DNA of 64,000 bases, taken from Bacteroidales bacterium. GTDB lineage: Bacteria > Bacteroidota > Bacteroidia > Bacteroidales > BM520. Below are positions 8,914 to 42,860 of the stretch, piece after piece (within the stretch, counting starts at the first letter, position 1; every line of letters begins with the position of its first letter). The stretch lies in NCBI GenBank assembly GCA_016285515.1, contig JAEEQW010000009.1, forward strand, positions 5,561 to 69,560, in the 5' to 3' direction. The notes beneath the pieces were generated by a model that was not told where the DNA came from, searched no databases, and saw nothing but the letters and a program-made list of their open reading frames with translations. The translations under genes and the position numbers were made by a program.

Positions 8914-10047
8914 ATGAAAAAGTTAACCAGCATATTTTTATGTGCTTTGCTTTTGGTGTTAAGCACATTCAATAGTCTCAATGCACAGACTAAGTCTATA
9001 TCATCCTTGAAAGGCGACCTCAATAACGATGGGATGGTTAATACTCTTGATGTCGTCATGCTTATTAATATTATTTTTGGTGGGGACCAAGGTATTATGT
9101 ACGCTGATGTCAACGGAGATGGTGTGGTAAACACTCTTGATCTCGTCATGACTGTAAACATTATTTTCTACGGACAGCCATCGGAATTGACTGTTTCTAC
9201 CAGTGAAGTAAGCGGCATTACTTATTTCTCCGCTTTCTGTGGCGGAAATGTTTCAGATGATGGCGGACTGGATTTGGTGTCACGCGGTATATGCTGGAGC
9301 ACTTCCGAATCCCCGACAGTGTTTGACAACGTAATATCCAATGGCAGTGAAACCGGTGAGTTTGCCTGTGTTATGACTGACCTTGCGAGTGCAACAACTT
9401 ATTATGTCCGTGCGTTTGCAATCAATACCGCTGACACTGCATACGGTGAACAGAGGGTTTATACCACTGATGTATATAATGCTACTGGACAAAGCGTGGA
9501 TTTGGGACTGCCTTCAGGAACTAAGTGGGCTGACCGCAATATCGGCGCTTCTCTGGCTTCTGAATATGGCAGCTATTATTCATGGGGAGAGACAGCAACA
9601 AAGGTGGATTATTCATGGAACACTTATCTCTGTACCCAGGACCAGTGCGATACCTCTGAAGATCCAATATTTGCTGCTGGCCTTACTAATATTGCCGGAA
9701 CAGATTTTGATGCTGCCCATGTGATTTGGGGTGGAACATGGCAGATGCCAACTGATGAACAACTGAGTGAATTGTTGGACAATTGTACGTGGATTTGGAG
9801 TACACAAGGTGGGGTTGACGGTTATTTCGTTATTGGCCCTAACGGTAATTGCATATTCCTTCCTTCAACAGGTTGCTTTGACGGCACAGAGTTAACCTTC
9901 TGCGGGTTTATGGGCTTTTATTGGACATCAACTCATTGCATTTATAATACAACGAATGCAAACCATCTGCTATTCAATCTATTACACTCATTCGAAAATT
10001 TCCTCTACCGTTACTACGGACAAACTATACGTCCTATTACATTCTAA
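8914..10047 (+). CDS. Secreted protein: signal peptide, N-terminal dockerin, Ig/FN3-like module, C-terminal lectin-like (DUF1566/FISUMP-type) domain
   Basis: Signal peptide ending SLNA-QT. Dockerin loops DLNNDGMVNTLD and DVNGDGVVNTLD. Middle module GICWSTSESPT...TTYYVRAFAINTADTAYGEQ. C-terminal motifs YGSYYSWGET, WQMPTDEQLSELL, IFLPSTG, FYWTST, IRPI. Confidence 0.7.
   Translation: MKKLTSIFLCALLLVLSTFNSLNAQTKSISSLKGDLNNDGMVNTLDVVMLINIIFGGDQGIMYADVNGDGVVNTLDLVMTVNIIFYGQPSELTVSTSEVSGITYFSAFCGGNVSDDGGLDLVSRGICWSTSESPTVFDNVISNGSETGEFACVMTDLASATTYYVRAFAINTADTAYGEQRVYTTDVYNATGQSVDLGLPSGTKWADRNIGASLASEYGSYYSWGETATKVDYSWNTYLCTQDQCDTSEDPIFAAGLTNIAGTDFDAAHVIWGGTWQMPTDEQLSELLDNCTWIWSTQGGVDGYFVIGPNGNCIFLPSTGCFDGTELTFCGFMGFYWTSTHCIYNTTNANHLLFNLLHSFENFLYRYYGQTIRPITF
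9010..9171 (+). other. Type-I-like dockerin module placed immediately after the signal peptide
   Basis: aa 33-86. Two DxNxDGxVNxLD loops, each followed by a (L/V)xNIIF helix, closely resembling the module at 1816-1980. Confidence 0.75.
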
Positions 10048-17520: not shown

Positions 17521-18003
17521 ATGTTTTTGGGCTTTGAAACATATAATTGCAAACTGGACAACAAGTTCAGAATCCTTGTCCCTACAAAGTTTCGCAAGGA
17601 CAATGAGGAGCTGATACGTGAAGGTTTTGTGATTAAGAGAAGTTTGTCATTCCAATGCCTTGAACTGTATCCTTATTCCGAATGGAAGAATCAGGTTGCT
17701 ATGTTGAACAGACTTAATCCATTTGACAAGCGTGCCACTGATTTCAAGATACTTTATACAGCAGGCGTGAGGACAGTGGAACTTGACGGAAGCAACAGAA
17801 TCCTGATTCCGAAGGAACTGGTTAACGCAGGCAATTTGCAGAAAGAGGTGTATCTCATCCCTTTAGGCACTTATTATCAGATATGGGATAAGGATGCTTA
17901 TGAACAGCATCTTGCCGGTAACAAGGGTGTTAACCTCAACGATGCATACAGTGATGTGATTAGTGAATTGGGCGCAATAAACGATAATCTCAACAACAAA
18001 TAA
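17521..18003 (+). CDS. mraZ: Transcriptional regulator MraZ
   Basis: KLDNKFRILVPTKFR and a second SpoVT/AbrB-like half (DGSNRILIPKEL). First gene of the dcw cluster. Confidence 0.95.
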   Translation: MFLGFETYNCKLDNKFRILVPTKFRKDNEELIREGFVIKRSLSFQCLELYPYSEWKNQVAMLNRLNPFDKRATDFKILYTAGVRTVELDGSNRILIPKELVNAGNLQKEVYLIPLGTYYQIWDKDAYEQHLAGNKGVNLNDAYSDVISELGAINDNLNNK

Positions 18004-18013
18004 ATTCACTTTA

Positions 18014-18952
18014 ATGGAGAAGCAGGCTGCAAATATTGAATTTGATGACGGAATGACATATCACAATCCGGTAATGCTCAGTGAAAGCATTGACTATCTT
18101 ATCACTGATCCGGATGGGATATATGTTGATGTCACATACGGCGGAGGCGGACACTCACGTGAGATCCTCAAAAGACTCGGAGAAAATGGCCGTCTTATAG
18201 TCTTCGATATTGACAGTGACGCTTTTATGAACCGTCCTGACGACAGCCGGCTGACCTTCGTAAATCAGAACTATCGCTATCTTTGGAATTATCTCAAATA
18301 TTATGATGCGATTCCGGTCAACGGTGTCCTCGCTGACCTCGGCGTTTCATCACACCAGATTGACGATTATGAACGCGGTTTTGCAATTCGCAAGGACGGC
18401 GAGCTTGACATGAGAATGAACAACCAGTCTGGCAAAACTGCAAAAGATATACTTAACACATATTCCGAAGAGGAACTGACACACATCTTCAAGGATTATG
18501 GTGAAATAGAAAAACCTTATTTTCTCATAAGAGACATATTGAATTTCAGGGAAGACAACTTTTTTGAAACTACTGCCGACCTCAAGGCGGTAGCTATGAA
18601 ATCGGCGCCCCGTAACAAGGAATTCAAATATCTGTCACAGGTTTTCCAGGCAGTAAGAATAGAGGTCAACTCCGAACTTGATGCTTTGGGTGAAATGTTG
18701 CGGCAGATAGCCGTCATTTTGAAATCAGGTGGCAGGGTGGCTGTCATCAGCTATCATTCACTTGAGGACAGAATGGTCAAAAACCTTTTCAAGACCGGTA
18801 ATATAGAAGGTGTGGAACAGAAGGATTTCTATGGAAACAAGATAACCCCATTTGAGGTCATCACCCGCAAACCTGTTGTTCCTTCCGATGACGAAATAAC
18901 TTTAAATGGCAGGGCAAGAAGCGCAAAACTGCGCGTTGCACAAAAAATATAG
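18014..18952 (+). CDS. rsmH: 16S rRNA (cytosine1402-N4)-methyltransferase RsmH
   Basis: HNPVML...YVDVTYGGGGHS, DLGVSSHQID, SYHSLEDR motifs. Confidence 0.95.
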   Translation: MEKQAANIEFDDGMTYHNPVMLSESIDYLITDPDGIYVDVTYGGGGHSREILKRLGENGRLIVFDIDSDAFMNRPDDSRLTFVNQNYRYLWNYLKYYDAIPVNGVLADLGVSSHQIDDYERGFAIRKDGELDMRMNNQSGKTAKDILNTYSEEELTHIFKDYGEIEKPYFLIRDILNFREDNFFETTADLKAVAMKSAPRNKEFKYLSQVFQAVRIEVNSELDALGEMLRQIAVILKSGGRVAVISYHSLEDRMVKNLFKTGNIEGVEQKDFYGNKITPFEVITRKPVVPSDDEITLNGRARSAKLRVAQKI

Positions 18953-18956
18953 TATC

Positions 18957-19364
18957 ATGGCTAATAAACTGAAAGAACAGAAGACAGAACAGCCCGAACG
19001 TAAGGCTCCTTCACCAAAGAAAGCGTCTAACGGCCGTGCCAACAAAATCGCCAAATCATTCTTCTCCGGCGATTTTCTGTTCTCCGGTAATTTCAGAAGA
19101 AGTCCGATTTGGTTCATTTTGTACTGCGTACTGCTTATACTTATATATATAGGTATGCGCTATGAACCGGTGAAGAGATATAACACCATGGTAAGGCTTA
19201 ACAAGGAACTTGACAAGTGCAATTACAGAAATAATGATGTAAAGGCACAACTTCAAAAGTATCAGAGTTCCAGTGTTCTAATGAAACAGCTGTCACCGCA
19301 GGGCTTCCAACAAACCCTTGAACAGCCTCACGTAATTATCGTAGAAAAAAATGGGAGACATTAA
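18957..19364 (+). CDS. ftsL: FtsL-like cell-division protein
   Basis: Position between rsmH and ftsI. Basic N-terminus, a single TM helix (IWFILYCVLLILIYIGM), then a coiled-coil-like segment. ATG at 18957 preferred. Confidence 0.6.
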   Translation: MANKLKEQKTEQPERKAPSPKKASNGRANKIAKSFFSGDFLFSGNFRRSPIWFILYCVLLILIYIGMRYEPVKRYNTMVRLNKELDKCNYRNNDVKAQLQKYQSSSVLMKQLSPQGFQQTLEQPHVIIVEKNGRH

Positions 19365-21135
19365 CAAGAGAATGATTATCATGTGCCTTGTCGCATTCGT
19401 GGTGGTGATTGCCGCAATGCTCAAACTGTGCTTTATTTCTCTTGCGCATGGTCAGAAGATACGTGAGGCCGTTGACAATAAAGCGTATATCACCGATGTC
19501 GTAACCGCTTTCGGTGGCAACCTTCTCGGTGATAATGCCAATGACCTTCTGGCCTATTGCTATCCTTCATGTGACATAAGATGGAATGCTGTTACGGCAA
19601 AGAAGAATATTCCCAATCTCACTCTTGACACACTTAAATATTTAGCCGATGATTTCGACAAATATTTCCTCGAAAAGAATGGCGGCAAGTCATATTATCC
19701 GCTTTTTAAGAAGGCTTATCAGAATGGTCTTACCAATCAGCTGATAATGAGGGATGTGCACAAGGAAGAGGAGACAAGGGTGTCACATTTCAGAATCCTG
19801 CGTGAATCCAAAGGCGGTCTTGTCATTGACCATCATACGGATATGATTTTCACAAGTGACAAGATAAGTACGAGAACACTTGGGAAGACCAATCTTGACG
19901 ATGAATCCAATAAAGTTGGAATTATTGGGGCTTACAGGGACACTCTGATGGGCAAGACAATGAAACGCGATATGTTTCATGGTAACGTCCTTCCTGCTGA
20001 GATTAGCGACCAGATATTTCCTGACAAGGGAAGGGATGTGGTGTCCACCATCAATTACAATCTTAGCGAGAGTGTCTATGATGCTTTGTATGCTGAGATG
20101 AAACGCGTGAAGGCTGGAAAAGGTTGCGCTATAGTGATGGATGTAGAAACCGGTGATGTGAAGGCTATGATAAACCTGACGAAAAGTTATCGTAGTGACA
20201 CCGTTTTCAGCGAACAGACAAACATAGCTTTTGCTAACACATACGAACCGGGCTCCGTTTTCAAACTCGCTTCGTTTGTGGTGGCTCTTAAGGATGGGGT
20301 TATCAATCTTGATGACGAAATGTCGATAGGCACCGGCAGGATGCATTTCCCGGGCAAGGATGTCGTTGATTCCCACATATACAGTTCAGAACAAGTATGG
20401 TCGCTGCGCAAGATATTCGCAATGTCATCGAATATTGGTGCAGCCAAAGTGGTTTATAACAATTACAAGTCGAATCCACAGAAATTCGTTGACGGGCTTC
20501 ATGCTCTTCATCTTGATGATTATGTGAAAACCGACATACTGAGTTCCTCAAGGTCTCAGATAAAAAACACAGACAGTGAAAACTGGTGGCAGACGAGTTT
20601 GTATCAGATGGCTCAAGGATACGAAGTTATGATTACTCCTATCAACCTGGCAATGTTTTACAATGCCATTGCCAACGGAGGAGTAATGATGAGACCGCGT
20701 TTCGTGAGCTGTATTATTGATAATGAACATGATAAGGTGATAAACTTTGACCCTGTGGTTGTCGATACCATCTGCAACGATTCCATTGCGCGGCTGGCAA
20801 AAAGTATTCTCAGGGAGGTGGTAACAACAGGTACTGCTGCCAATGTCTTTAAAAATGCTAAGTATGCTTTCTGTGGGAAGACAGGTACTGCCCAGATTAG
20901 GGCCAGCAAAGTTTACAGTGCGACATTCATCGGTTTCTTCCCGGAAGAAAAGCCGAAATATACAATCTATGTCATGCTGAGTGATTTATATGGCGAATAT
21001 TATGCTGCCTCAGTTGCCGCTCCGGTAGTAAGAAGGATTGCCGATGTTTTGTATGAGACGACTCCGTGTTTTTATGAAACCATGATGGTTGACATTAAGA
21101 CACCTAACGTATGGAATGAGCTAAGTAAAAAATAA
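19351..21135 (+). CDS. ftsI: Penicillin-binding protein, FtsI/PBP3-type transpeptidase
   Basis: N-terminal TM helix. SxxK = SVFK, SxN = SSN, KTG = KTGTA. Confidence 0.9.
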   Translation: MGDINKRMIIMCLVAFVVVIAAMLKLCFISLAHGQKIREAVDNKAYITDVVTAFGGNLLGDNANDLLAYCYPSCDIRWNAVTAKKNIPNLTLDTLKYLADDFDKYFLEKNGGKSYYPLFKKAYQNGLTNQLIMRDVHKEEETRVSHFRILRESKGGLVIDHHTDMIFTSDKISTRTLGKTNLDDESNKVGIIGAYRDTLMGKTMKRDMFHGNVLPAEISDQIFPDKGRDVVSTINYNLSESVYDALYAEMKRVKAGKGCAIVMDVETGDVKAMINLTKSYRSDTVFSEQTNIAFANTYEPGSVFKLASFVVALKDGVINLDDEMSIGTGRMHFPGKDVVDSHIYSSEQVWSLRKIFAMSSNIGAAKVVYNNYKSNPQKFVDGLHALHLDDYVKTDILSSSRSQIKNTDSENWWQTSLYQMAQGYEVMITPINLAMFYNAIANGGVMMRPRFVSCIIDNEHDKVINFDPVVVDTICNDSIARLAKSILREVVTTGTAANVFKNAKYAFCGKTGTAQIRASKVYSATFIGFFPEEKPKYTIYVMLSDLYGEYYAASVAAPVVRRIADVLYETTPCFYETMMVDIKTPNVWNELSKK

Positions 21136-21145
21136 AAAATTAGTT

Positions 21146-22597
21146 ATGATTGATGTTTTGTTAAACGGTGTAAAGGTGGTAGAGATTGCTGGTAAGATGC
21201 CTTCAAAAGTTTCTGCGGTGTGCATTGATTCCAGACAAGTCACGAAGGGTTCGCTGTTTGTAGCTATTAAGGGCTATTTGCAGGATGGTCATTCGTTTAT
21301 CAGAAATGCTGTTAATTTGGGTAGTGCTGTGATTGTCTGCGAAGTCTTGCCTTCTGACATGGCTGATGACGTATGTTATGTCAAAGTGAAGGACTCCGCA
21401 GCCGCAGCATCTATTATCGCTTCGAATTTCTATGACAATCCGTCTTCAAAGATGAAGCTTGTAGGTGTTACCGGCACTAACGGAAAAACCACGACAGTCA
21501 CACTCCTCTATAATCTTTTCACTTCGCTTGGCTATTGCTGCGGACTTCTTTCTACTGTGCAGAACATCATCGGGAAAAGGGTGCTTGAGACCGACCACAC
21601 AACTCCCGATCCAATCACTCTAAATCGTCTTATGTCGGAAATGGTTGACTGCGGATGCGAATTCTGCTTTATGGAAGTGAGTTCCCATGCCGCTGACCAG
21701 AAACGAATTGCCGGACTGACTTTCGCTGGCGGAATCTTTTCCAATATTACTCACGACCATCTTGATTATCATGGGACTTTTGTCAACTATATAGCTGCGA
21801 AAAAGAGTTTCTTCACATTGTTGCCTCCGGAATCATTCGCACTGACTAATGTTGATGACCGCAATGGAATGGTTATGGTGGAGAACACTAAAGCAAAGAT
21901 ATATACATACGGAGTCAAGGAAATGGCTGATTTCCATGCCAAGATACTTGAATTCAAGATATATGGAACTCTGATAAAAATCAATAATGAGGACGATTTC
22001 TGGCTTCCGCTGCCTTGCATGTACAATGTGTATAATCAACTTGCGGTATATGCTGCTGCCGTCCTTTTAGGTGCCGACAAGGAAGAGATGAAGGTTGCCC
22101 TCAGTGCTGTAAAAGGTGCAAAAGGCAGATTCCAGCTTGTCCCGAACAATGACGGAAAGAATGTCATTGTGGATTATGCCCATACTCCTGATGCTCTTGA
22201 AAATGTGCTTTCGGCAGTCAAGGAGCTTACTGAAGACGACAGACGTGTGATATGCGTTTTCGGTGCCGGTGGCGACAGAGATACCACAAAACGTCCTGAA
22301 ATGGGGGCTGTGAGCGTGAAATATTCCGATTTGGTAATCATCACTTCTGACAACCCACGTTCCGAGGAGCCCAACTCTATAATTGACCAGATTGCTGCCG
22401 GTATTGATGAGGCCAATATGAAAAAGGTAATGCGCATACCTGACAGAAAGGAAGCCATCAATGTGGCCATCAATCTGATGCAGCCTGATGACGTGCTCGT
22501 TATTGCTGGCAAAGGCCATGAGAATTATCAGGAGATAAAAGGTGTAAAACATCATTTCGATGATGTTGAAATTGTTAAAGAACTCATTAACAGATAA
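21146..22597 (+). CDS. murE: UDP-MurNAc-L-Ala-D-Glu:meso-diaminopimelate ligase MurE
   Basis: P-loop [11 protein letters not shown] and the DNPR motif (TSDNPRSE). Confidence 0.95.
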
Positions 22598-22602
22598 ATG
22601 AT

Positions 22603-23886
22603 ATGTTATACTATTTGGCGAAATATTTGGACAATGTTTATGATTTTCCTGGAGCAGGTGTCTTTAACTACATTTCTTTCAGGTCAGCGATGACATTCAT
22701 CACATCGTTGATAATATCATTGATATTCGGTAAAAATATCATCAAAAAGTTGAGAGAAAAACAAATAGGGGAGACGGTCAGGAATCTCGGACTTCCTGGT
22801 CAGAAGGAAAAAGAGGGCACTCCAACCATGGGTGGTATCATCATAATCTTGTCAATAATCGTTCCCACATTACTTTTCGCCGATATAGCCAACATATACA
22901 TAATTGTCCTGCTAATCACCACTATGTGGCTTGGCACCATGGGCTTTCTGGACGATTACATCAAGGTTTTCAAAAAGAACAAGAATGGTCTTGCTGGCAA
23001 GTTTAAAATCATGGGGCAGATTATACTTGGAATTTTTGTCGGAGTGATAATGTGCTGTCATCCTGATGTGGTCATTAGGGAAAAAACCTCGGAGCACAAT
23101 TCAATAACAATTGATTCTGAAATCAATGCTGCAAATCAGGCAGTTACATATTACAAATATTCCTCACCAGAACAGTCTTTGAAGACTACTATTCCATTTT
23201 TGAAACATCATCAGCTTGATTACGGCAAAATAATACCGGAAAACATGAAAAACCACAGGTTATGGACTTGTGTGATTTTCATTGTAATAGTCACTTTCAT
23301 AATAACTGCTGTGTCGAACTGCTGCAATCTGACAGACGGCATGGATGGGTTGGCCACGGGCACGTCTTCCTCAGTCGGTGCGGTATTGGCCATTTTCTCC
23401 TGGGTATCCGGCAACATCATTTTTGCCGACTATCTGAACATTATGATGATACCGTCGGTAGGCGAGCTGACAGTTTTTATAATGGCGTTTGTCGGTGCCT
23501 GCGTAGGGTTTATGTGGTATAACACATTTCCGGCTCAGATATTCATGGGAGATACCGGCAGTCTTACAATCGGTGGCATCATTGCGGTTTATGCCATAAT
23601 GATTCGCAAGGAACTGCTTCTCCCTGTGCTTTGTGGAATTTTCCTGGTTGAAGGTTGCTCCGTAATCATTCAGAGAGTATGGTTCAAAATCACGAAGAAA
23701 ATATACGGCGAAGGGCGAAGAGTATTTCTGATGGCTCCTTTGCATCATCATTATCAGATACTTGAAGGGAGAAAATATACTACTGAAGAAGGCAAGAAAC
23801 GCAGTGAGGCAAAAATCGTCACCCGTTTCATCATCGTCAGCATTCTGCTCGCCTTCATATCAATCGTAACATTGAAACTTAGATAG
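22603..23886 (+). CDS. mraY: Phospho-N-acetylmuramoyl-pentapeptide transferase MraY
   Basis: Polytopic membrane protein with [17 protein letters not shown] and APLHHH motifs. Confidence 0.95.
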
Positions 23887-23927
23887 TCTTAAACTTAAAA
23901 TATAGAACGAACAAAAAACTTAAAATC

Positions 23928-24473
23928 ATGAACTTAGAAAAATTAGCAACACAGGGAAGGACAAAGGTTCCAAGGTCAACTGCCGCATCAATACTCAGTC
24001 AGCAGCTTCTTGAAATGAGAAAAGAATCATTAAAGACCTGTTTCGAAAACTTTTTCAGCCGCGATCACAGACTTGAGACAGTCGCTTCAATTCACAACGT
24101 TGAATTCATCGATGATTCAAAAGCTGAAAATGTAAATGCAACCTGGTATTCTCTGGAGTCTTTCAACGATCCTGTCATCTGGATTGTCGCAGCAAACAAG
24201 GATGACTCAGGATTTGAAAAGATTACTGAGTTAATCATGAAAAAAGTCAAATCGATTATCTGCGTGGGAAACGACTGCAGCGTAATGCGTGACACCTTAA
24301 GTGGATATGTCAAGACTTTTATAGAGGCATCCACTATAAACGATGCCGTATTATATGCATTCAACATCAGCAGAAGAGGGGACAAAGTACTGTTTTCACC
24401 GGCAGGATTATTGGGAAACAAAACGTATGCTGAAGCAGGTGATGAATTTAAGAGAGCTGTAAACAGAATATGA
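23928..24473 (+). CDS. murD: Truncated MurD: Mur-ligase C-terminal domain only (181 aa; may be a relic or pseudogene)
   Basis: Occupies the murD slot between mraY and ftsW. Carries HRLE, FIDDSKAENV (family NDSKATN), VLFSPAG and GDEFK motifs of the MurD C-terminal domain. No P-loop and no N-terminal domain. The intergenic gap to mraY is only 41 nt. The stop overlaps the ftsW ATG (ATGA). Confidence 0.8.
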   Translation: MNLEKLATQGRTKVPRSTAASILSQQLLEMRKESLKTCFENFFSRDHRLETVASIHNVEFIDDSKAENVNATWYSLESFNDPVIWIVAANKDDSGFEKITELIMKKVKSIICVGNDCSVMRDTLSGYVKTFIEASTINDAVLYAFNISRRGDKVLFSPAGLLGNKTYAEAGDEFKRAVNRI

Positions 24474-25612
24474 TCAGAAAGCTTTTCATAGGAGACAAGG
24501 GGTTGTATGCAATATTGACGATATTGTTTCTGTTGTCATTGATTGCCACTTTTTCCACTATTCCGTATAAGGAAGTTGTCGGAAATGGCGGAACCATATC
24601 CCATCTTATGAAACAACTGCTATTTATAGTAATAGGTGTATTCTTGATATTCATTGTCGGAAGAATTGATTATCAGGGACGGTTCTTTAAGATTGGTGCT
24701 ATAACAATCTATGTCCTGTCAGTTGTCCTTTGTGTGATAATGCTGGCAAAAGGAGTTTCAAGCAATCAGTCAATAAGGGATCTCAGATTATTGGGTGTTT
24801 CGATACAGCCGTTTGAGTTTGTGAAAGTCACGTTCGTTCTGTATCTGTGTATGGCTTTATCGAAAGGTTATGAGCTGCTCAATTCTTCATTGAAATACTT
24901 CATTCTGTATTTGGGATTACCTATTATAATTACTTGCGGACTATGCTTTACCCAGAAGTTGTCATCAGCGTTTATCATGCTGGTGATTGCTTTGATTTTA
25001 CTGTTTGTTGTAAAGATGAACTGGAAGTATGTTCTCGGACTGGTTGGCGTAATTGTAGCTGCAGCCGTGCTGTATATGGCTATTGACAGAGTCTCGAGAG
25101 TCAATACGACTGGAAAGAGCAGAATCAAGACATACGTTGAGAATTTGTTTTCAGGCAGCGAACAATACCATGAAATTGACAGTCCGATGATAGCCATTGG
25201 CAATGGTGGATTAATCGGCACATTCCCGGGTAATAGCGAAGTGAAATATTATCTGATTAATTCCGAGTCGGATTTCATTTTCTCCATTCTTGTAGAGGAG
25301 GGTGGAATGCTGACAGGATTGTTTATAATCATAGTATATACGTTGTTTTTCCTCAGGGTTATGGTTATAGCCTTGAAGAGTGACAACATATTGGGTAGGG
25401 TGCTCGCTTTCGGTTTGGGCTCAGTTGTTTTGGTGCAGGCACTTGTGCATATTTCCGTGGCAGTAGGCCTTATGCCTATTACGGGCGAACAGTTGCCGTT
25501 TGTAAGCAAAGGTGGCTCTTCGCTAATTGCGTACTGTTTCCTGTCCGGAATAGTTCAAAGCATTGCATCGCATCATGTTACAATAAAAGAGGAGGCTGCT
25601 TATGAAGAATAA
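24470..25612 (+). CDS. ftsW: SEDS-family cell-division protein FtsW
   Basis: Polytopic membrane protein in the conserved position between murD and murG. C-terminal motif PITGEQLPFVSKGGSS. Confidence 0.85.
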   Translation: MIRKLFIGDKGLYAILTILFLLSLIATFSTIPYKEVVGNGGTISHLMKQLLFIVIGVFLIFIVGRIDYQGRFFKIGAITIYVLSVVLCVIMLAKGVSSNQSIRDLRLLGVSIQPFEFVKVTFVLYLCMALSKGYELLNSSLKYFILYLGLPIIITCGLCFTQKLSSAFIMLVIALILLFVVKMNWKYVLGLVGVIVAAAVLYMAIDRVSRVNTTGKSRIKTYVENLFSGSEQYHEIDSPMIAIGNGGLIGTFPGNSEVKYYLINSESDFIFSILVEEGGMLTGLFIIIVYTLFFLRVMVIALKSDNILGRVLAFGLGSVVLVQALVHISVAVGLMPITGEQLPFVSKGGSSLIAYCFLSGIVQSIASHHVTIKEEAAYEE

Positions 25613-26720
25613 TGATACTATTAAGGTTATTGTCAGTGGGGGAGGAACAGGAGGGCATATATTTCCGGCAATAGCAATTGCAAATGGAATAAGGGACAGA
25701 TATCCGAATTCCGACATTCTCTTCATAGGTGCCAACGGAAGAATGGAAATGGAAAAAGTCCCTAAGGCCGGGTATAAGATTATCGGGCTTAATGTGCAGG
25801 GACTTAGCAGAAAATCTATGCTGAAAAACATACCTATCCTTGTAAAGTTCTTCTTGAGCATGAAGAAGGCAAAAAAGATTATTAAGAACTTTAAGCCTGA
25901 TTTTGTTGTCGGAGTCGGTGGGTATGCAAGTGGTGCCGTTTTGAAAGCGGCAGTTTCGCAACATATTCCTGCCATAATACAGGAACAGAATTCGTTTCCT
26001 GGCAAAACCAATATAATGCTGAGCAAGAATGTGGATGCTATATGTGTGGCTTACAGTGGTTTGGAAAAATATTTCCCTAAGGAGAAAATAGTCATGACCG
26101 GTAATCCAATCAGAAAAGAATTTCTGAATATAACACCGAAAGCTGATGAGGCATTCGAGTATTTCGGAATTAAAGACAGAAGCAAACCTGTTGTGCTCAT
26201 TGTCGGCGGAAGTCAGGGAGCTCTTGCAATTAACAATGCGATTGCCAAGGACTTGCAGAAGTATGTGGATGCAGGGTGTTTTGTGATTTGGCAGGTTGGA
26301 AAAACCTATTTGCCCACTGCCAAAGAACAGTTGAATGATAACTATGGGGATTCTGTCTGGTGTTCTGATTTCATATATAGAATGGACTTGGCATACAGTG
26401 TTGCCGACATGGTGATTTCGAGAGCTGGTGCCATAGCCATTTCCGAACTCTGTGCAGTCGGACTTCCTGCGATTCTGATACCGCTGCCGACTGCTGCTGA
26501 AAATCATCAGATGAAAAATGCCCAGGCACTTGCTGACAAGGGAGCGGCATTGATTGTTGAAAATGACAAAGCAGAACAGGAGCTTTCAAATGTCGCAATC
26601 AGCTTGTTGAATGACGGGGAAAAGCTCCAGTCGCTTGGAACAAATATCAAGAAATTGGCTATTACTGATGCTGTTGATAGAATATTGAATATAATAGAAA
26701 CTAAAATTTTGAATAAATAA
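25602..26720 (+). CDS. murG: UDP-GlcNAc:lipid I N-acetylglucosaminyltransferase MurG
   Basis: SGGGTGGHIFPAIAIA, GGSQGA, and the C-terminal AENHQMKNA motif. Confidence 0.95.
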   Translation: MKNNDTIKVIVSGGGTGGHIFPAIAIANGIRDRYPNSDILFIGANGRMEMEKVPKAGYKIIGLNVQGLSRKSMLKNIPILVKFFLSMKKAKKIIKNFKPDFVVGVGGYASGAVLKAAVSQHIPAIIQEQNSFPGKTNIMLSKNVDAICVAYSGLEKYFPKEKIVMTGNPIRKEFLNITPKADEAFEYFGIKDRSKPVVLIVGGSQGALAINNAIAKDLQKYVDAGCFVIWQVGKTYLPTAKEQLNDNYGDSVWCSDFIYRMDLAYSVADMVISRAGAIAISELCAVGLPAILIPLPTAAENHQMKNAQALADKGAALIVENDKAEQELSNVAISLLNDGEKLQSLGTNIKKLAITDAVDRILNIIETKILNK

Positions 26721-26740
26721 TAAACAATTAATGAGTGAAG

Positions 26741-28105
26741 ATGTCTGAAGGGATAAACATAAATAAACTTAAAAAGCTGTATTTCATAGGAATAGGTGGT
26801 ATTGGGATGAGCTCTCTTGCCCAGTATTTCTATAATCGCGGCTGCAAGGTTTCGGGATATGACAAAGCTCACTCTGCTGTTACTGAAATGCTCGAAAATA
26901 TCGGGATAGTTGTCAACTATTTTGAGAATGAGGCTAATATAAGCGATGATACTGATTTGGTCGTTTATACTCCAGCTATAAATATAACCAACAAGGAACT
27001 TGCATACGCCATGAATAATGGCTTCAATGTTGTTAAACGTTCGGATCTTCTGGCAGCCGTTTGCGAGGGCAAATATTGCATTGCAGCTGCCGGAACCCAC
27101 GGCAAGACTACCGTTACTGCAATGATTGCCAATATCTTCGATGGATGCGGTATCCCCATGGAGGCTTTCGTCGGCGGTATTTGCAAATCAACGGGCAGCA
27201 ATCTTTATTCCTCAAATGGCGCAAGAATAGTTGTGGTCGAGGCAGATGAATATGACAGATCATTCCTTAAACTCAAGCCGGATATCTCAGTGGTCACTTC
27301 CGTGGAAATCGACCATCTCGATATATATGGTGAAAAGGTACAACTGGTCGATGCTTTCAGGGAGTTTTCATCGATCGCCAAACCTTCTAACAGAATAGTA
27401 AATTACAAGTATAAAGATATACTTCCAACATACAATACTTATGGTTTCGATAAGAATGCAAAATGCAGAATTGTTGAGTATTCTTATCATAACGGATTGG
27501 CTGACATCATAATAAATGATGGCAATAGAGATGTGAAGTTTACCGATATGCCTATTCGCGGAAGATTCAATATGGAAAACTTCTGTGCTGCCTTTTCAGT
27601 AGCTGCCTTGCTTAAACTCGATTATAGCAAGGTTGAATTGGCAATGAGAAACTATAAGGGTGTTTCCCGCAGGTTCGATGTTCTTTATCAGGATGACAAA
27701 GTGGTTTACATTGATGACTATGCTCACCATCCGGAGCAGGTTGAAACTCTTCTTGATGCAATTCATGAAGTGTATCCTGGCAAGAAGATATGCGGATTCT
27801 TCCAGCCGCATCTCTATTCGAGGACTAAATTGTTTATGGACCAGTTTGCAGATGTCCTTTCCAAATTCGATGAGATGTATTTGCTTGACATATATCCTGC
27901 TCGTGAACTGCCTATTGAAGGCGTAACTTCGCATGAGTTGTTCTTTAGGATGAATGTCAGTAAGGGCAGTGTCATTTTGAGAAACACTATCGCACAGGTT
28001 GCAAGGAAAACAGATGCCGAAATTATCGTAACTATAGGTGCAGGCAATATTGATAGGAGTTGCAATGAAATTGTTGAAATGTTAAAGGAGAAACGCAATG
28101 AGTAA
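26741..28105 (+). CDS. murC: UDP-N-acetylmuramate:L-alanine ligase MurC
   Basis: YFIGIGGIGMSSLA and P-loop AAGTHGKTT. ATG at 26741 preferred (the track start at 26735 is a GTG). Confidence 0.95.
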   Translation: MSEGININKLKKLYFIGIGGIGMSSLAQYFYNRGCKVSGYDKAHSAVTEMLENIGIVVNYFENEANISDDTDLVVYTPAINITNKELAYAMNNGFNVVKRSDLLAAVCEGKYCIAAAGTHGKTTVTAMIANIFDGCGIPMEAFVGGICKSTGSNLYSSNGARIVVVEADEYDRSFLKLKPDISVVTSVEIDHLDIYGEKVQLVDAFREFSSIAKPSNRIVNYKYKDILPTYNTYGFDKNAKCRIVEYSYHNGLADIIINDGNRDVKFTDMPIRGRFNMENFCAAFSVAALLKLDYSKVELAMRNYKGVSRRFDVLYQDDKVVYIDDYAHHPEQVETLLDAIHEVYPGKKICGFFQPHLYSRTKLFMDQFADVLSKFDEMYLLDIYPARELPIEGVTSHELFFRMNVSKGSVILRNTIAQVARKTDAEIIVTIGAGNIDRSCNEIVEMLKEKRNE

Positions 28106-28865
28106 AGCAGGCAACATAATAATAACTGTTCTGATATGGCTGTTCGTGGCATCAGCTGTTGTTGCGTCTGTATTCTGCATTCGCTATTACAACAGAAAGA
28201 CTGTTAATGGTGTGGAAGTCAAGGTACTTGTCCCTGAAGGTAAGGAAATGCTTACCGACAGTATCATAAAAGATTTCATTTCAAGCGAAATCAACTCTGT
28301 TAAATCGAAGAAATTCAGCAGTGTCAATGATTCACTTTTCACCACAAAACTTATGAGGATACATTCGGTAAAGTCTGTGAGAGTCACTCCGTTGGTCAAC
28401 GGCAACATATTGTTGTCGGTGGTGCAGAAGGACCCGGTGGCAAAGGTGAATATTAAGGACAATAATAATTTATATATGACATTGGAGGGTGACATATTCT
28501 ATTCAGACAGATATGATGGCAGCTATAAATTATTAACAGTCAATGGATTGAAAGAACTGGATATAAATAAGCATTCCACAAGAACCGATAATTTGTCGGC
28601 TGTTGTTTCATATATTCTCAATGAGAGTAAGCATTTTCTTTACGACATTACAGAATCGGTCAGTGTGGTGGGAAAGGATGAAATGATAGAGTTGCAGAGC
28701 AGGTATGGAGTGAAGCGGATAATAATCGGCACACCAGAGAATCTGGAAGTCAAGTCATTCAATCTGAGAATGTTCTGTGAGGCAATGCATGAGCGTGACT
28801 TGTCGGTGTATGAGGCTTTGAATCTTAATTTTGAAAATCAGGTAATAGCAATAACAAAAAATTAA
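28098..28865 (+). CDS. ftsQ: FtsQ-like cell-division protein
   Basis: Position between murC and ftsA. N-terminal TM helix (IIITVLIWLFVASAVVASVF) followed by a POTRA-sized domain. Confidence 0.65.
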   Translation: MSKAGNIIITVLIWLFVASAVVASVFCIRYYNRKTVNGVEVKVLVPEGKEMLTDSIIKDFISSEINSVKSKKFSSVNDSLFTTKLMRIHSVKSVRVTPLVNGNILLSVVQKDPVAKVNIKDNNNLYMTLEGDIFYSDRYDGSYKLLTVNGLKELDINKHSTRTDNLSAVVSYILNESKHFLYDITESVSVVGKDEMIELQSRYGVKRIIIGTPENLEVKSFNLRMFCEAMHERDLSVYEALNLNFENQVIAITKN

Positions 28866-28870
28866 TTATT

Positions 28871-30145
28871 ATGACAGATTACATTGTTGGACTCGATATA
28901 GGAACTACTAAAATAGCAGTGGTGGTTGGCAGGAGAGCTGAATCCGGTAAGATTGAGATTGCAGGATATGGCAAAACAGAATCCTTAGGCGTGAAACGGG
29001 GATTCGTCTCCAATATTGAATTAACGATACAATCGATACAGAAGGCGGTAAAGGAGGCCGAGGAAAACTCAAATGTGGAGATAAAGGAGGTTTTTGTTGG
29101 CATCGCCGGACAGTATGTGAAAAGTATCCAACAACGTGGGCACTATATGAAGCAAGTGAGGGATGAGGAAATATCTCAGGAGGATATTGACAAGCTAACT
29201 GCGAGCATGTATAATCTTGCAATAAATCCGGGAGAACAGATTATTGCCGTCATTCCGCAGGAATATACCATTGATGGCGAACCGGGTATAAAGGAGCCGG
29301 TAGGCATGGTCGGCACTCTGATAGAAACCAACTTCCATGTTATTACTGCACAGATAGCGGCTGTAAGGAATATAAAGAAATGTGTCGAGAGAGCCGGATT
29401 GGAGCTTAAGGGTCTTATACTCGAGCCTATTGCATCTTCAAGCGCAGCGGTAAGCGAAGAGGAAAAAGAGGCAGGTGTTGCGCTTGTGGATATAGGTGGC
29501 GGCACCACTGATATTGCTATTTTCCAGGATGGATTTCTCAGACATTCTTCCGTGATACCTTTCGGCGGCGAAGTTATAACAGAAGACATTAAGGAAGGAT
29601 GCACAATCATAAAGAAATATGCTGAAGACCTGAAGGTGAAGTTTGGCTCGGCAATGGCTGTAAAGAACAAGGCAGAGGAAATAGTTTCCATCCCTGGTCT
29701 TCGCGGACGTCCGCCAAGAGAAATATCGTTGAAGAATCTTGCTTCCATCATTCAGGCAAGAATGGAAGAAATCCTTGAACAGGTTAATTTCAATATCAGA
29801 AATTCGGGCTATGAGAAGAAACTTATTGCAGGAATAATCATAACTGGCGGTGGCTCTTTGCTGAATCATGTTATTCAGCTTACTGAATATGTCACCGGCA
29901 AAGAGACACGCATTGGCTATCCTAACGAATTTCTGGAAAACGGTACAGACAGAGAATTGTCAAACCCGATATATTCCACGGCTGTGGGACTTCTTAAGAT
30001 AGGTATTGAGAAAGCCGAGGAGGAAGAATTGGAGGCAACACAATCAGATAAGGACAATCCTGAGGAAGAACTGAAACCAGAAGTCAAGGATAAAAAGAAG
30101 AGAAGACTGCTGGATATGTTCGAATCATTTTTGACATCAGAATAA
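28871..30145 (+). CDS. ftsA: Cell-division protein FtsA
   Basis: Actin-fold motifs GLDIGTTKIAVVVG and DIGGGTTDIA. C-terminal amphipathic tail. Confidence 0.95.
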   Translation: MTDYIVGLDIGTTKIAVVVGRRAESGKIEIAGYGKTESLGVKRGFVSNIELTIQSIQKAVKEAEENSNVEIKEVFVGIAGQYVKSIQQRGHYMKQVRDEEISQEDIDKLTASMYNLAINPGEQIIAVIPQEYTIDGEPGIKEPVGMVGTLIETNFHVITAQIAAVRNIKKCVERAGLELKGLILEPIASSSAAVSEEEKEAGVALVDIGGGTTDIAIFQDGFLRHSSVIPFGGEVITEDIKEGCTIIKKYAEDLKVKFGSAMAVKNKAEEIVSIPGLRGRPPREISLKNLASIIQARMEEILEQVNFNIRNSGYEKKLIAGIIITGGGSLLNHVIQLTEYVTGKETRIGYPNEFLENGTDRELSNPIYSTAVGLLKIGIEKAEEEELEATQSDKDNPEEELKPEVKDKKKRRLLDMFESFLTSE

Positions 30146-30162
30146 GAGAAAATATAGTAATT

Positions 30163-30206
30163 ATAAATAACTAAACACAAACGAATAAATAACTAAATAC
30201 AAACGA
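30163..30206 (+). repeat. Tandem 22-nt direct duplication ending 2 nt before the ftsZ start codon
   Basis: ATAAATAACTAAACACAAACGA (30163-30184) is followed directly by ATAAATAACTAAATACAAACGA (30185-30206). The copies differ by one C/T. Confidence 0.9.
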
Positions 30207-30208
30207 TT

Positions 30209-31648
30209 ATGGTAGGGAATATAGACTTTAATTTACCAAAGGACAAATCATCGATTATTAAGGTGATAGGAGTAGGCGGCGGCGGCTGCAACGCAGTAAA
30301 CTATATGTACAGTCAGGGTATCACTGATGTTGACTTTGTAGTTTGTAATACTGATAATCAGGCACTTGACTCAAGTGATGTTCCTGTCAAAATACGTCTT
30401 GGCAGTACCGGTCTTGGTGCGGGATCAATACCTGAGGTCGGACGTCAGCTTGCGATTGAAAGCAAGGAACAGCTTGTCGATGCGATACAGGCAAACACCA
30501 AGATGCTGTTCATAACGGCAGGAATGGGCGGTGGCACAGGAACGGGTGCGGCTCCTGTAATAGCCCAATTGGCTAGGGAACATGGAATCCTTACGGTTGC
30601 TATTGTCACTACTCCTTTTAAATGGGAAGGCAAAAAAAGAGAAAATCAGGCCAAAGAAGGTATTGCCAGATTAAGAGAAAACGTCGATACAATGATTGTT
30701 GTCGCAAACCAGAAACTCAAGGAATCATACGGGACATTAGGCCTGAAGGATTCTTTCGCCATGGCTGATAAAGTGCTTGCAACGGCGGCCAAAAGCATTT
30801 CCGAAATGATTACAAAATCCGGATATGTGAATGTTGACTTTCAGGATGTGAGAACCGTTCTCTCCAACAGCGGAACATCACTTGTAGGTTATGGCATTGC
30901 TGAAGGTGAAAACAGAGCAAAGGATGCTGTTGATGCAGCTTTGGATTCCCCTCTGCTCAATGACGGCGACATCAAAGGCGCAAGCAACATATTGCTCAAT
31001 ATCGTCAGCGGCAGCGAACAGATTACCACCGATGAACTTGATGAACTTGCTGAATATGTTCAGGTATTTGCCGGCGGCGATGCCGACATCATATTCGGTC
31101 AAAGTTTTGATGAGTCTCTTGGAAACCAGTTGTCTGTAACCATCATTGCTACGGGATTTCCATCAACAAGTGTGCAGCCGGAAAAGAAGGTTATCAATCT
31201 GGGTGATGTAAACAGTGATATGGGCTCGACTAACTCTGTGAAAACCAATAATGATTCCGAAACCGGCGAGATTATCCTCAACACTAATAACTCCGGAAGA
31301 ATTATACGTACTCTGTACGATGAAGATAGCAGACACAACAGTGCAGACACCGAATCTCTGGGAAGCAGTGAGCCGTATGCTGGTTACCAAGATGAACCTT
31401 TGGGAAGTGAAGAGATGGATAAGAAGCATGAGGAACGTTACAAAAACATACGCAGCTTCTCTCTTAATCTTTCGTCAAGCGAACAGGTCGAAAGAATGGA
31501 AAAAGAACCTGCTTACATGAGAAAGGAAGTTGAATTTGCGGATGTTCCATCTTCTGCTGAGCCTATCATGTCTTCGTCTTCAGTCAACTGCAATACCTAT
31601 GTGTTGAGACGTAATAACAATAGGTTCCTTAATCCCAACGTTGACTGA
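30209..31648 (+). CDS. ftsZ: Cell-division GTPase FtsZ
   Basis: [13 protein letters not shown] and the tubulin signature [13 protein letters not shown]. Long disordered C-terminal linker. Confidence 0.97.
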
Positions 31649-39011: not shown

Positions 39012-41431
39012 TCTAAAGCGATATTCATGATGTCACGCATTTCATCGATGTATATGAAATTCAGCCCTTCGATGTATTCAGGCTTGATTTCGTCAATATC
39101 GCCCTTGTTGAATTTCGAAAGGACGATGGTGTCGATGTGGGAACGCTTTGCTGCCAATATCTTTTCTTTTATTCCTCCTACCGGAAGGACTTTGCCTCGC
39201 AGTGTGATTTCACCTGTCATGGCGATGTTGTTCTTCACTTTTTTGTTGGTGATGATTGAAACGAGGGCTGTGAATATGGTGATGCCTGCAGACGGTCCGT
39301 CCTTTGGTGTTGCCCCTTCCGGAACGTGGATGTGAATGTTGTGTTTCTTGATGATTTTTTCATCAATACCCAAAGATTTGGCATGGGACTTTATGTATTC
39401 GAAGGCAAGTGTTGCCGATTCTTTCATGACATCACCGAGGTTGCCTGTCATGGTGAATTTTCCGTCTCCTGGTGAGAGGCTGGTTTCTGTGAACAGCATT
39501 TCTCCGCCGACAGCAGTCCATGCAAGTCCTGTTACCACGCCCACGGTAGGCTCAGGCAATGCGTCCTCTCGCATGAACTTCGGTTGGCCGAGCATGTTCA
39601 CGAGGTCTTTCTTGGTGATACGTTTGGAGAACGGTTCCTCCATGACTATCTGTTTTGCCCTGTTGCGTATGATGGTGGCAATGTTTTTTTCGAGGACTCT
39701 CACGCCGGATTCGCGGGTGTATTCGTTGATGATTTGATTGATGATATCATCGGTTAATTCAACCTGTGAAGCCTTGACGCCATGTTCCTGACGTTGTTTG
39801 GGGATAAGATGCCGTTTGGCAATTTCGCGTTTTTCGTCAATAAGATAGCCGCTTATGTCGATGATTTCCATTCTGTCGCGCAAGGCAGGATGTACCGATT
39901 GCAGCGAATTGGCGGTAGCGACAAACAACACTTTCGACAGGTCGAATTCTATTTCAACGTAGTTGTCGTAGAATGTGTTGTTCTGTTCAGGGTCAAGGAG
40001 TTCCAGAAGAGCTGCCGACGGGTCGCCGTTGACGCTCATTCCACCTACTTTGTCTATTTCATCAAGGATGAAGACAGGGTTGGCTGACTTTGCCTTGATG
40101 AGGCTTTGGATGACACGGCCCGGCATTGCGCCTATGTATGTCTTTCTGTGTCCTCTGATTTCGGATTCATCGTGCAGACCGCCCAATGACATGCGGACAT
40201 ATTTTCGTCCAATTGCCTTGGCGATGGATTTGCCCAATGAAGTCTTGCCGACTCCCGGAGGACCGACGAGACAGATGATGGGCGAACGCATGTTCTTCTT
40301 CAACTTCAGTACCGAGATGAATTCTATGATTCTTTTCTTCACGGTTTCAAGTCCGTAGTGGTCGGCATCAATTATCTTCTGTGCCTTGTGCGGGTCGAAA
40401 TCGTCTTCAGTATATTCGTTCCATGGTATATCAACGAGAGTGTCGAGATATGTCTTCTGGATGCTGTATTCCATAGACATCGGATTGAGTCTCTGTAACT
40501 TGCCGAGTTCTTTCTCGAAAGCATCTTTTACGTTGTCAGCCCATTTTTTCTTGCTGGCCTTCTTTTTCAGATCATCGATATCCTGTGCGTTCGAATTGTC
40601 GCCCAGCTCCTCCTGAATGGTTTTAAGTTGCTGGTTCAGGATGTAATCGCGCTGCTGTTTGTCGATGTCAACTTTAACCTTCTTTTCGATTTGTTTCTTG
40701 ACTTCAAGGACTTTAAGTTCATTGGTCAAGTATTCCATGAGGGCATTGGCCTGGTCTGTGATATCCTTCATCTCAAGCAATTTCTGCTTGTCTTCAACGC
40801 TGATGTCCAAGTAGTTGGATATGTAGTTGATGATGAATTTGGGCTGGTCGATGTTTTGAAGGGCGAAATTAGTCTCGTTAGGGATATTCGGAGATTTCTC
40901 GATAACCTGCTCTGCGAGGCTCTTCAGTGTGCTTATCTGAGCGTTGAGTTCAGTGTTTTTCTTCAGGGAAGTCTTTTGTACGATAGGTGTTATTCTTGCT
41001 ACAAAATACGGTTCACTTTGAATCAGTTCCTCGAGATGGAATTTCGATTTGCCTTGTATGATGGCAGTGATGCTTCCATCAGGCATGTTGAGAACCTTTA
41101 GGATTACAGCCACAGTACCTATTTCATATAGATCTTTGAATGTCGGTGACGCTTCATCCCCGTTCATCTGGGTTACAACGCCGAGCATCTTGCTGGTTTT
41201 GTTGATATCCTCAATAAGTTTCAGGGATTTTTCCCTTCCGACTGCTATCGGTATTATGACGTCAGGGAAAAGGACAGTGTTCCTGAGCGGTAAAATTGGC
41301 AGAGAATCCGGAATTTTTGTGTCTTCCTTCAAATTACCAACAATATCAATCACTGGAAATATGTCATTATTGTCATTTGACGTGTTTTCGGAGATTAGAA
41401 CGTCTTTGTTTATTTCATCAAATTTACTCAT
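39008..41431 (-). CDS. lon: ATP-dependent Lon protease
   Basis: LON N-domain, AAA+ P-loop GPPGVGKTS, and the protease serine in PKDGPSAG. Confidence 0.95.
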
Positions 41432-41504
41432 ATATCTGACAATTTGTCAAAAAGTCCACTTTAAATAATTTAAGGTACACTATGGACAATAACCATGCCA
41501 CAAA

Positions 41505-41538
41505 TAAAAAAAGCTGCTTGACAGCAGCCTTTTTTTTA
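41505..41538 (-). terminator. Rho-independent terminator downstream of rpmE (bidirectional shape)
   Basis: AAAAAAAGCTGCT-TGAC-AGCAGCCTTTTTTTT: GC-rich stem flanked by A- and T-tracts, immediately after the rpmE stop. Confidence 0.75.
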
Positions 41539-41799
41539 TTCATGTTTTTGATAACGTTTACCGTATTTGCTCATGAACTTGTCAACACGTCCTGCGGTGT
41601 CGATAAGTTTAACCTTACCGGTAAAGAACGGGTGCGAAGCACTCGATATTTCAAGTTTGATAAGTGGATATTCTTTACCATCTTCCCAAACGATGGTGTC
41701 TTTTGTTTTGGCAGCTGACCTGCACATAAACATATAGTCGTTTGACATATCCTTGAAAACGACGAGTCTGTAATCTTTTGGATGGATATCAGCTTTCAT
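41536..41799 (-). CDS. rpmE: 50S ribosomal protein L31, type B (zinc-independent form)
   Basis: [10 protein letters not shown]...[10 protein letters not shown]. The CxxC zinc-binding pairs are absent. Confidence 0.9.
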
Positions 41800-41835
41800 T
41801 ATTTGTGGTTTTATTAATTATTCATTTTGAGCCTG

Positions 41836-41843
41836 CAAAAATA
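41836..41843 (-). promoter_or_regulatory. Bacteroidota -7 promoter box TATTTTTG (minus strand)
   Basis: TAnnTTTG match 37 nt upstream of the rpmE ATG. Confidence 0.45.
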
Positions 41844-41923
41844 GTACATTTTTATTAAAACAAAACATTTTTGGAAAATAATTTTTTATTTGCTATTTAT
41901 TCGCTAATATCAAAAATAATACG

Positions 41924-41931
41924 TACTTTTG
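41924..41931 (+). promoter_or_regulatory. Bacteroidota -7 promoter box TACTTTTG
   Basis: TAnnTTTG match 23 nt upstream of the ATG at 41954. Confidence 0.5.
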
Positions 41932-41953
41932 CTAAATTTAAAAAACTGGAATT

Positions 41954-42157
41954 ATGAAAGTATCACATGTAGTCGCATTCCTTGGCGGAGCCGCAGTTGC
42001 AGCTGGAATCACGCTCCTTTTTACAACTGAAAAAGGTGGCGAAATTCGCACAAAAGCACAAAAGTTGTCTAAAGAAGAAATTGACAAGATCATTGCCAAA
42101 CTGAAAAAGGAGAAGGAAATATTAGAAGAGGAAGAAGCAGCAGCTGAAGAGATTTAG
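41954..42157 (+). CDS. YtxH-like small membrane-anchored protein
   Basis: 67 aa. N-terminal hydrophobic helix (VVAFLGGAAVAAGITLLF), then a charged helix and an acidic tail, typical of YtxH-domain proteins. Confidence 0.55.
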   Translation: MKVSHVVAFLGGAAVAAGITLLFTTEKGGEIRTKAQKLSKEEIDKIIAKLKKEKEILEEEEAAAEEI

Positions 42158-42158
42158 T

Positions 42159-42840: not shown

Positions 42841-42860
42841 AAGTATAATAAATTTAAGAA

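Follow-up and report, generated by a model that had tools for sequence, protein, structure and literature searches.

MurD, the UDP-N-acetylmuramoylalanine--D-glutamate ligase, counts as an essential enzyme that is universal and made as a single polypeptide, and it is an antibiotic target. Here we analyze a stretch of 64,000 nucleotides (hereafter the window) from contig JAEEQW010000009.1 of an uncultured Bacteroidales bacterium of gut or rumen (assembly GCA_016285515.1), in which the murD slot of an otherwise complete cluster of division and cell-wall genes (dcw) is occupied by an open reading frame (ORF), here termed X, that codes for a protein of only 181 amino acids. We show that X is a genuine, selectively maintained protein consisting of the tail of the MurD central domain and the whole of its C-terminal domain. 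It is a MurD-derived, pseudoenzyme-like domain protein, whose gene stands in for murD in the dcw clusters of a broad clade that is uncultured.

Among the closest described systems are natural MurD-FtsW fusion proteins, which exist though the two catalyze non-consecutive steps (Shirakawa et al., PNAS 2023, PMC10214165); the Mur ligases also bind one another with sub-micromolar dissociation constants (PMC10214165). In Xanthomonas an alternative route for the addition of D-glutamate (D-Glu) uses MurD2, a full-length ligase, together with the epimerase MurL (PMC8788868); reports of this pair concern some Gamma- and Alphaproteobacteria and rare actinobacteria, and not Bacteroidota (PMC8788868). A search of the literature for truncated or stand-alone forms of MurD returned nothing relevant, and we could not find a published description of the short MurD-C proteins, which constitute a large family.

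A MurD C-terminal domain in the dcw cluster

The order of the cluster, mraZ-rsmH-ftsL-ftsI-murE-mraY-X-ftsW-murG-murC-ftsQ-like-ftsA-ftsZ, is as the initial annotation of this DNA had given it, and X lies between mraY and ftsW, in the slot that identifies MurD by position. The features on which the following discussion draws are, in window coordinates:

17521-31648 (+), the entire dcw cluster from mraZ to ftsZ, of the Bacteroidota type and complete
21146-22597 (+), murE, matching NF001126 with 623 bits against a cutoff of 373
22603-23886 (+), mraY, 427 aa, of normal length and without fused Mur domains in Pfam
23887-23927 (+), the mraY-X spacer, 41 nt, AT-rich, with two copies of AACTTAAAAT
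23928-24473 (+), short murD (X), 181 aa with an ATG start, a stand-alone MurD C-terminal-domain protein identical to MBR0122907.1
23928-24065 (+), residues 1-46 of X, a remnant of the central domain with its last strand and helices (MNLEKLATQGRTK...), aligning to the G-x-H-N-x-x-N of full-length MurD
24066-24470 (+), residues 47-181 of X, a complete MurD domain 3 with the Mur_ligase_C fold
24470-24473 (+), the ATGA overlap, in which the TGA stop of X (24471-24473) lies on the ATG of ftsW (24470-24472)
24470-25612 (+), ftsW, 380 aa, of normal length
26735-28105 (+), murC, 456 aa, canonical and not Mpl-like, matching TIGR01082 with 366 bits against a cutoff of 335

Profile comparisons bear out the proposal that this slot encodes only the C-terminal part of MurD, and place the ORF in the Mur-ligase C-domain family. 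Mur_ligase_C (PF02875) is the sole Pfam match, covering residues 47-160 with 36.7 bits against a gathering score of 28.4, and the NCBIfam murD model TIGR01087 is matched only over profile positions 278-440 of 441, with 102.2 bits against a cutoff of 211.95. X accordingly lacks the three-domain architecture of the MurD equivalog, and its whole-protein score lies below the curated cutoff for that family. Alignments to structures in the PDB equate it with residues ~257-437 of E. coli MurD, i.e. with the end of the central domain and all of domain 3; the central-domain remnant, residues 1-46, does not vary among members of the close subfamily.

In no frame of the window are the MurD N-terminal and central domains present, as had been claimed: six-frame phmmer searches with MurE and MurC as queries recovered no further Mur-ligase-like ORF, and Pfam scans of the other large ORFs added none. 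X contains no GxxGK[ST] P-loop, which is present as GTNGKT at residue 110 of MurE and as GTHGKT at residue 120 of MurC. Hidden Markov model searches for the N-terminal and central (N+M) region of MurD, conducted in six frames over the window and 12 further short-form loci with 10 kb on either side, returned only cross-matches to MurC and MurE. A hidden N-terminal extension of X can be set aside because 15 codons upstream there is an in-frame TAG, and the interval contains no start codon. The ORF is intact, begins 41 nt after mraY and runs with its stop into the ftsW start, all as first described; this ATGA overlap would allow translational coupling of X with ftsW. Such an overlap is found in the window and in L019, a Joint Genome Institute (JGI) metagenome contig labelled MamHS_LCS_72C, and gaps of 2-52 nt separate the two genes in other relatives. 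The GenBank entry MBR0122907.1 is labelled 'hypothetical protein IJM12_03570 [Bacteroidales bacterium]'.

We then modelled X with AlphaFold2, using a 47-sequence alignment, and obtained predicted local distance difference test (pLDDT) values of 96-98 at residues 50-181 and of 53-76 at residues 1-48. In a Foldseek comparison the modelled core falls on P. aeruginosa MurD at 2.0 Å over 141 columns (E 1.6e-12), and all 33 best structural matches of this core are MurD. The model thereby shows X with a predicted domain-3 fold that has been retained from MurD.

Distribution, selection and functional residues of the short forms

Comparison of the locus across relatives, which the initial annotation had recommended, uncovered short homologues in the same slot; X is no isolated case but belongs to a large, conserved family. 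A protein identical to it over all 181 aa is found in 63 indexed blocks of public assemblies; we read 19 contigs with an identical X from Logan, ENA and NCBI (e.g. GCA_017437995.1), the gene order being the same at all four places displayed, and in independent assemblies both the 181-aa gene and its 41-nt junction recur unchanged. A 93%-identical copy occurs at L006, a metagenome-assembled genome (MAG) of GTDB labelled uncultured Marinilabiliales, and homologues of 177-187 aa, ranging from 62% to ~30% identity, occupy the mraY-X-ftsW slot at every locus examined (13 distinct loci). The short-form loci are L001 (a 508-kb scaffold), L002-5, L006, L007-9, L019, L020/21 ("Bacteroidetes bacterium 4572_112"), L030, L047, L068 and L071. 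X fits the short MurD-C family as we define it here, namely by a length of ~177-187 aa, a start equivalent to an internal Met ahead of the G-x-H-N motif, and a position between mraY and ftsW.

An exhaustive profile search that covered 1.84 billion representatives gave 54 proteins of 170-192 aa among its best 150 matches; four of the 54 keep every canonical residue and are treated as fragments of full-length genes, and one canonical-residue short protein (P0044 cluster) shares its cluster with a 444-aa member. Short MurD-C proteins form at least 50 clusters at 50% identity, and a word-indexed search produced 118 matches, mostly of 177-193 aa. A scan of JGI metagenomes with the short-form profile contributed few new short-form loci, 69 of the 80 genes returned being canonical and full-length. 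All named members derive from MAGs of uncultured organisms designated "Bacteroidales bacterium" or "Bacteroidetes bacterium", and no isolate or RefSeq WP_ entry was seen among the matches to the family. The short forms are annotated as 'hypothetical' by NCBI and as 'UDP-N-acetylmuramoylalanine--D-glutamate ligase' by IMG.

Several variants were encountered along the way. The 182-aa short form at L071:8120-8665 still carries the G-N-H-N motif of the ATP site; L030 and L068 have 195-aa forms with a 13-residue N-terminal extension ahead of the usual MTLETLASQG start; and the database proteins P0045, P0070, P0066 and P0151 join a MurD C-domain to unrelated C-terminal extensions of 100-180 aa, which may be fusions or gene-calling artefacts.

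Selection was gauged by Nei-Gojobori estimates between the window and L006, which for X give a dN of 0.030 and a dS of 0.446 (dN/dS, or omega, 0.067). The corresponding values for its neighbors are:

murE, omega 0.068
mraY, omega 0.075
ftsW, omega 0.076
murG, omega 0.070
murC, omega 0.077
ftsA, omega 0.053
ftsQ-like, omega 0.175

X is under strong purifying selection, on par with murE, mraY and ftsW. Its identity to the L001 lineage (62%) falls between those of FtsW (51%) and MurE (72%). The loci L010-L013, having been retrieved by exact protein identity, show zero non-synonymous differences and are uninformative in this regard. With its frame intact in all relatives and an omega of this magnitude, X is not a pseudogene; the strong conservation of the short form across a large family therefore marks it as a working protein.

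To trace what has been conserved, 11 functional positions were audited in the 54 short and in 42 full-length Bacteroidota sequences, in E. coli numbering without the initiator Met. Following the structural and mutagenesis literature on E. coli MurD and MurC, we take K115, E157, H183, N268, N271, R302 and D317 to be Mur-ligase invariants, T321, K348, S415, L416 and F422 to be the D-Glu contacts of MurD, and H301, R302 and D317 to line the nucleotide side of its domain 3. Each of the positions listed below is kept in 38-42 of the 42 full-length MurDs. Retention in the short forms is as follows:

D317, kept in 54 of 54
R302, kept in 48 of 54
H301, kept in 39 of 54
K319, kept in 31 of 54
S415, kept in 24 of 54
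T321, kept in 22 of 54
position 416, kept in 18 of 54
N271, kept in 11 of 54
N268, kept in 10 of 54
K348, kept in 10 of 54

X itself keeps five of the 11 positions, among them R302 and D317. It has K for N268, R for N271, E for T321, D for K348, L for S415 and G for L416, with Y at 422, and K115, E157 and H183 have gone along with their domain. The motif departures pointed out from the sequence (DSKAEN, AANKDD and SPAGLLGN) are all present, and the ligand-binding motifs have indeed drifted. Across the family retention forms a continuum from one to nine of the 11 positions, and the only near-invariant residues are D63, W85, V107, A140, S157, P158 and F174, all of them core residues common to MurD. 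Hence in the short-form family the fold is conserved and the ATP and D-Glu sites are not. Because X possesses neither the UDP-substrate domain nor the ATPase domain, and has its ATP and D-Glu contacts replaced, the sequence makes it implausible that this protein on its own could ligate D-Glu.

Regarding their origin, the short forms begin where related full-length MurDs carry an internal Met, as in "PFKMTIQELALQGKHN"; 20 of the 42 full-length Bacteroidota MurDs have Met at this position and the rest have another hydrophobic residue. In a neighbor-joining tree, which is crude, comprises sequences chosen as matches to the short-form profile and is limited in what it can imply by long-branch effects, 46 of 50 short forms constitute one pure clade. 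This pattern suggests one ancient N-terminal deletion, possibly along with a few independent ones. We propose that the mraY-ftsW slot of these Bacteroidales once contained an ancestral, full-length murD, from which the first ~270 codons were lost, and that translation of the short form would now begin at the formerly internal Met. Rather than a recent event, the truncation is probably an ancient one. The spacer does contain the 10-mer AACTTAAAAT exactly twice, at 23892 and 23917, as the initial annotation had noted; its suggestion that this marks a microhomology-mediated deletion was rejected, as the repeat is missing in L006, which is 93% identical, and in every other relative.

Full-length MurDs with Met at the short-form start position include P0013, P0020, P0021, P0024 and P0028 (e.g. 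L015:6001-7344 and L017:6001-7371), and it is conceivable that internal initiation in ordinary species could also yield a C-domain product. P0013 and P0020, the closest full-length MurDs, were considered as possible out-of-cluster paralogues and dismissed, given that they occupy the normal mraY-ftsW slot of other or sister lineages.

Possible roles of the stand-alone domain and the source of D-Glu ligation

Based on the foregoing we propose, with moderate confidence, that X has kept a non-enzymatic function of the MurD C-terminal domain and serves as an adaptor or scaffold, the catalysis itself coming from elsewhere; among the five explanations originally offered for the locus, a stand-alone C-domain with a new role is the best supported. 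Such a protein would operate in the cytoplasmic peptidoglycan-precursor machinery (the Mur ligases, MraY, MurG and FtsW), its most plausible partner being the adjacent and sometimes translationally coupled FtsW. By analogy, the adjacency of X to ftsW and the existence of MurD-FtsW fusions suggest that the MurD C-terminal domain and FtsW are linked functionally in a way that has nothing to do with consecutive catalysis. Because MurC and MurE are canonical and equally constrained, D-Glu ligation is presumably still needed in these organisms, and the activity that intact MurC and MurE require would come from a gene outside the cluster. We also considered that MurC might be Mpl-like or bifunctional and rejected this, its TIGR01082 score being above the cutoff and its score to the mpl model far below (116 bits against 389).

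Several observations weigh against this proposal. No alternative murD was found in the 64-kb window or in the 10-kb flanks of the 13 loci, the ATGA overlap with ftsW is not universal among the short-form family, and the single-clade origin leans on a tree with the shortcomings given above. Some short forms hold eight or nine of the 11 audited positions, including most of the D-Glu contacts, and judging from these residues some of the family may still bind ligand. Finally, the N-terminal 45 residues of X, which are conserved in the close subfamily and modelled at low confidence, would also suit docking onto a separate N+M fragment. Such docking is the essence of a split MurD, in which the N+M region would be encoded by a separate gene elsewhere and the two polypeptides would assemble into an active D-Glu ligase, with the N-terminal strand and helix of X completing the central domain of the partner. 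The break does fall inside the central domain, and the retained MNLEKLATQGR... is invariant in the close subfamily yet of low confidence when modelled alone; furthermore, R302 and D317 are kept almost universally, some members hold T321, S415, F416 and Y422, and GNHN is retained in L071. However, the catalytic residues of a split enzyme should stay fixed family-wide, whereas the invariants N268 and N271, which sit on the short fragment, are replaced in ~80% of members including that of the window (by K and R), K348 is lost in 44 of 54, and X has in addition lost the canonical residues at 321, 415 and 416. Neither the window nor the 10-kb flanks of the 13 loci contain an N+M fragment, and the best 120 matches to a profile of six N+M regions include no N+M-only protein on a long contig, though this is weak evidence as canonical MurDs of 444-449 aa saturate the list. 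We therefore regard a split enzyme, one of the explanations put forward at the outset, as distinctly unlikely.

The same lack of an N+M region in the window and around the 13 loci would be expected if this widespread uncultured Bacteroidales clade, known from rumen, gut, digesters, sediments and hot springs, had no canonical MurD at all, D-Glu being added by an unrecognized enzyme or route (another ligase, or MurC with an X-type domain in trans) to which X would be accessory. That all named members are uncultured MAGs would suit an unusual cell-wall dependency, and the retention and constraint of MurC and MurE imply that the step is needed. Yet the absence covers only the neighborhood of the cluster, less than 3% of a genome, it is simpler to assume that a full-length murD has relocated, and a short form with unconserved D-Glu contacts would be ill suited to present D-Glu to another ligase; we consider this alternative unlikely. 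It is quite improbable, in our estimate, that the isolated domain acts as a sensor or regulator which binds nucleotide, D-Glu or UDP-MurNAc-peptide and tunes FtsW or precursor synthesis. The best-kept functional residues (D317, R302 and H301) are those of the nucleotide side of domain 3, and basic residues stand in place of N268 and N271 in many members (the QGR-x-K motif), but R302 and D317 may be kept for folding alone and the family displays no new invariant residues beyond the core ones common to MurD. Drift in the ligand-binding motifs is what would be seen in a neutral relic decaying after the functional copy had moved, a highly improbable account given an omega equal to that of essential neighbors, an intact ORF of constant length (177-187 aa) down to 30% identity and a fold predicted at very high confidence. 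An error of gene calling, or a deletion or frameshift confined to one assembly, is next to inconceivable: among database 'short MurDs', a few whose residues are fully canonical do turn out to be fragments of 444-aa genes (P0044 cluster), but this gene recurs in dozens of independent assemblies, with its 181 aa and its 41-nt junction unchanged in those from Logan, ENA and NCBI, and it is found in distant relatives, and the stop-to-stop frame has room for just 15 extra codons, with the end of mraY 41 nt upstream.

In a large group of Bacteroidales from gut, rumen and environment, abundant though uncultured, the murD slot thus contains the C-terminal domain alone, constrained like mraY or ftsW while its substrate-binding residues drift; the conservation and breadth of this short form would surprise a specialist in peptidoglycan. 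A second, non-catalytic function of the MurD C-terminal domain is probable and would merit a search in model bacteria as well, and the MurD-FtsW fusions point likewise. For D-Glu ligase activity these organisms must rely on a gene that has relocated, on a split partner or on something new. In practical terms, the ligase label applied by IMG would cause pathway reconstructions to count the D-Glu step as present by virtue of a protein predicted to be unable to perform it.

Other genes of the window and comparison with known systems

Two further genes of the cluster merit comment. The start of ftsL has been called differently in different assemblies of the same organism, giving 152 aa in the window (18906-19364) and 135 aa at L010:5030-5437, and the longer call shares 47 nt with rsmH. 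The 255-aa ORF in the ftsQ slot (28098-28865, +) matches no Pfam family and changes about twice as fast as its neighbors (omega 0.175 against 0.05-0.10). Outside the cluster the following were noted:

1801-4932 (-), a 1043-aa protein with a Spi inhibitor domain, Peptidase_C10, InlB-type B repeats and a C-terminal type I dockerin
4948-6162 (-), a 404-aa protein with no Pfam or NCBIfam match
8914-10047 (+), a 377-aa protein with an N-terminal dockerin, near the 1043-aa dockerin protein
41431-42861, 1.4 kb with small ORFs only, of which one on the minus strand resembles ribosomal protein L31, and with no Rfam match
48394-49755 (+), a 453-aa protein with a signal-peptide-like start and no Pfam match
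49870-52887 (+) and 58995-60995 (+), large secreted proteins with type IX secretion system sorting domains (Por_Secre_tail), one with a lectin-like region and the other with BNR repeats

Dockerin modules such as those in the first and third of these are unusual for Bacteroidales.

Relative to canonical MurD, X is homologous to residues ~257-437 of MurD specifically, rather than of MurC, MurE or MurF, and preserves the mraY-ftsW slot, the domain-3 fold at 2.0 Å, R302, D317, the SP motif and the core tryptophans. It differs in the loss of domain 1, which binds UDP-MurNAc-L-Ala, and of nearly all of domain 2, with the P-loop lysine K115, E157 and H183, and in the replacement of N268, N271, T321, K348, S415 and L416. 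The Xanthomonas MurD2/MurL pair is a precedent for lineage-specific rewiring of the D-Glu step (PMC8788868); as a route for the organism of the window it was rejected on grounds of taxa and architecture, nothing resembling it having been found here. The plastid MurE-like protein of the plastid-encoded RNA polymerase (PEP) complex (PDB 8QMA/8RAS) and MurT of MurT/GatD, both of which appear as weaker structural neighbors of X, are precedents for Mur-ligase folds in structural or altered roles. However, they are full-length or multi-domain proteins of the MurE and MurT lineages, and neither is a stand-alone C-terminal domain in a dcw cluster. The MurD-FtsW fusions similarly place a MurD C-terminal domain beside FtsW, by fusion where the present locus does so by adjacency and the ATGA overlap; unlike X, which is a separate C-domain polypeptide of Bacteroidales, these chimeras keep a three-domain MurD and occur in Proteobacteria and Actinobacteria (PMC10214165).

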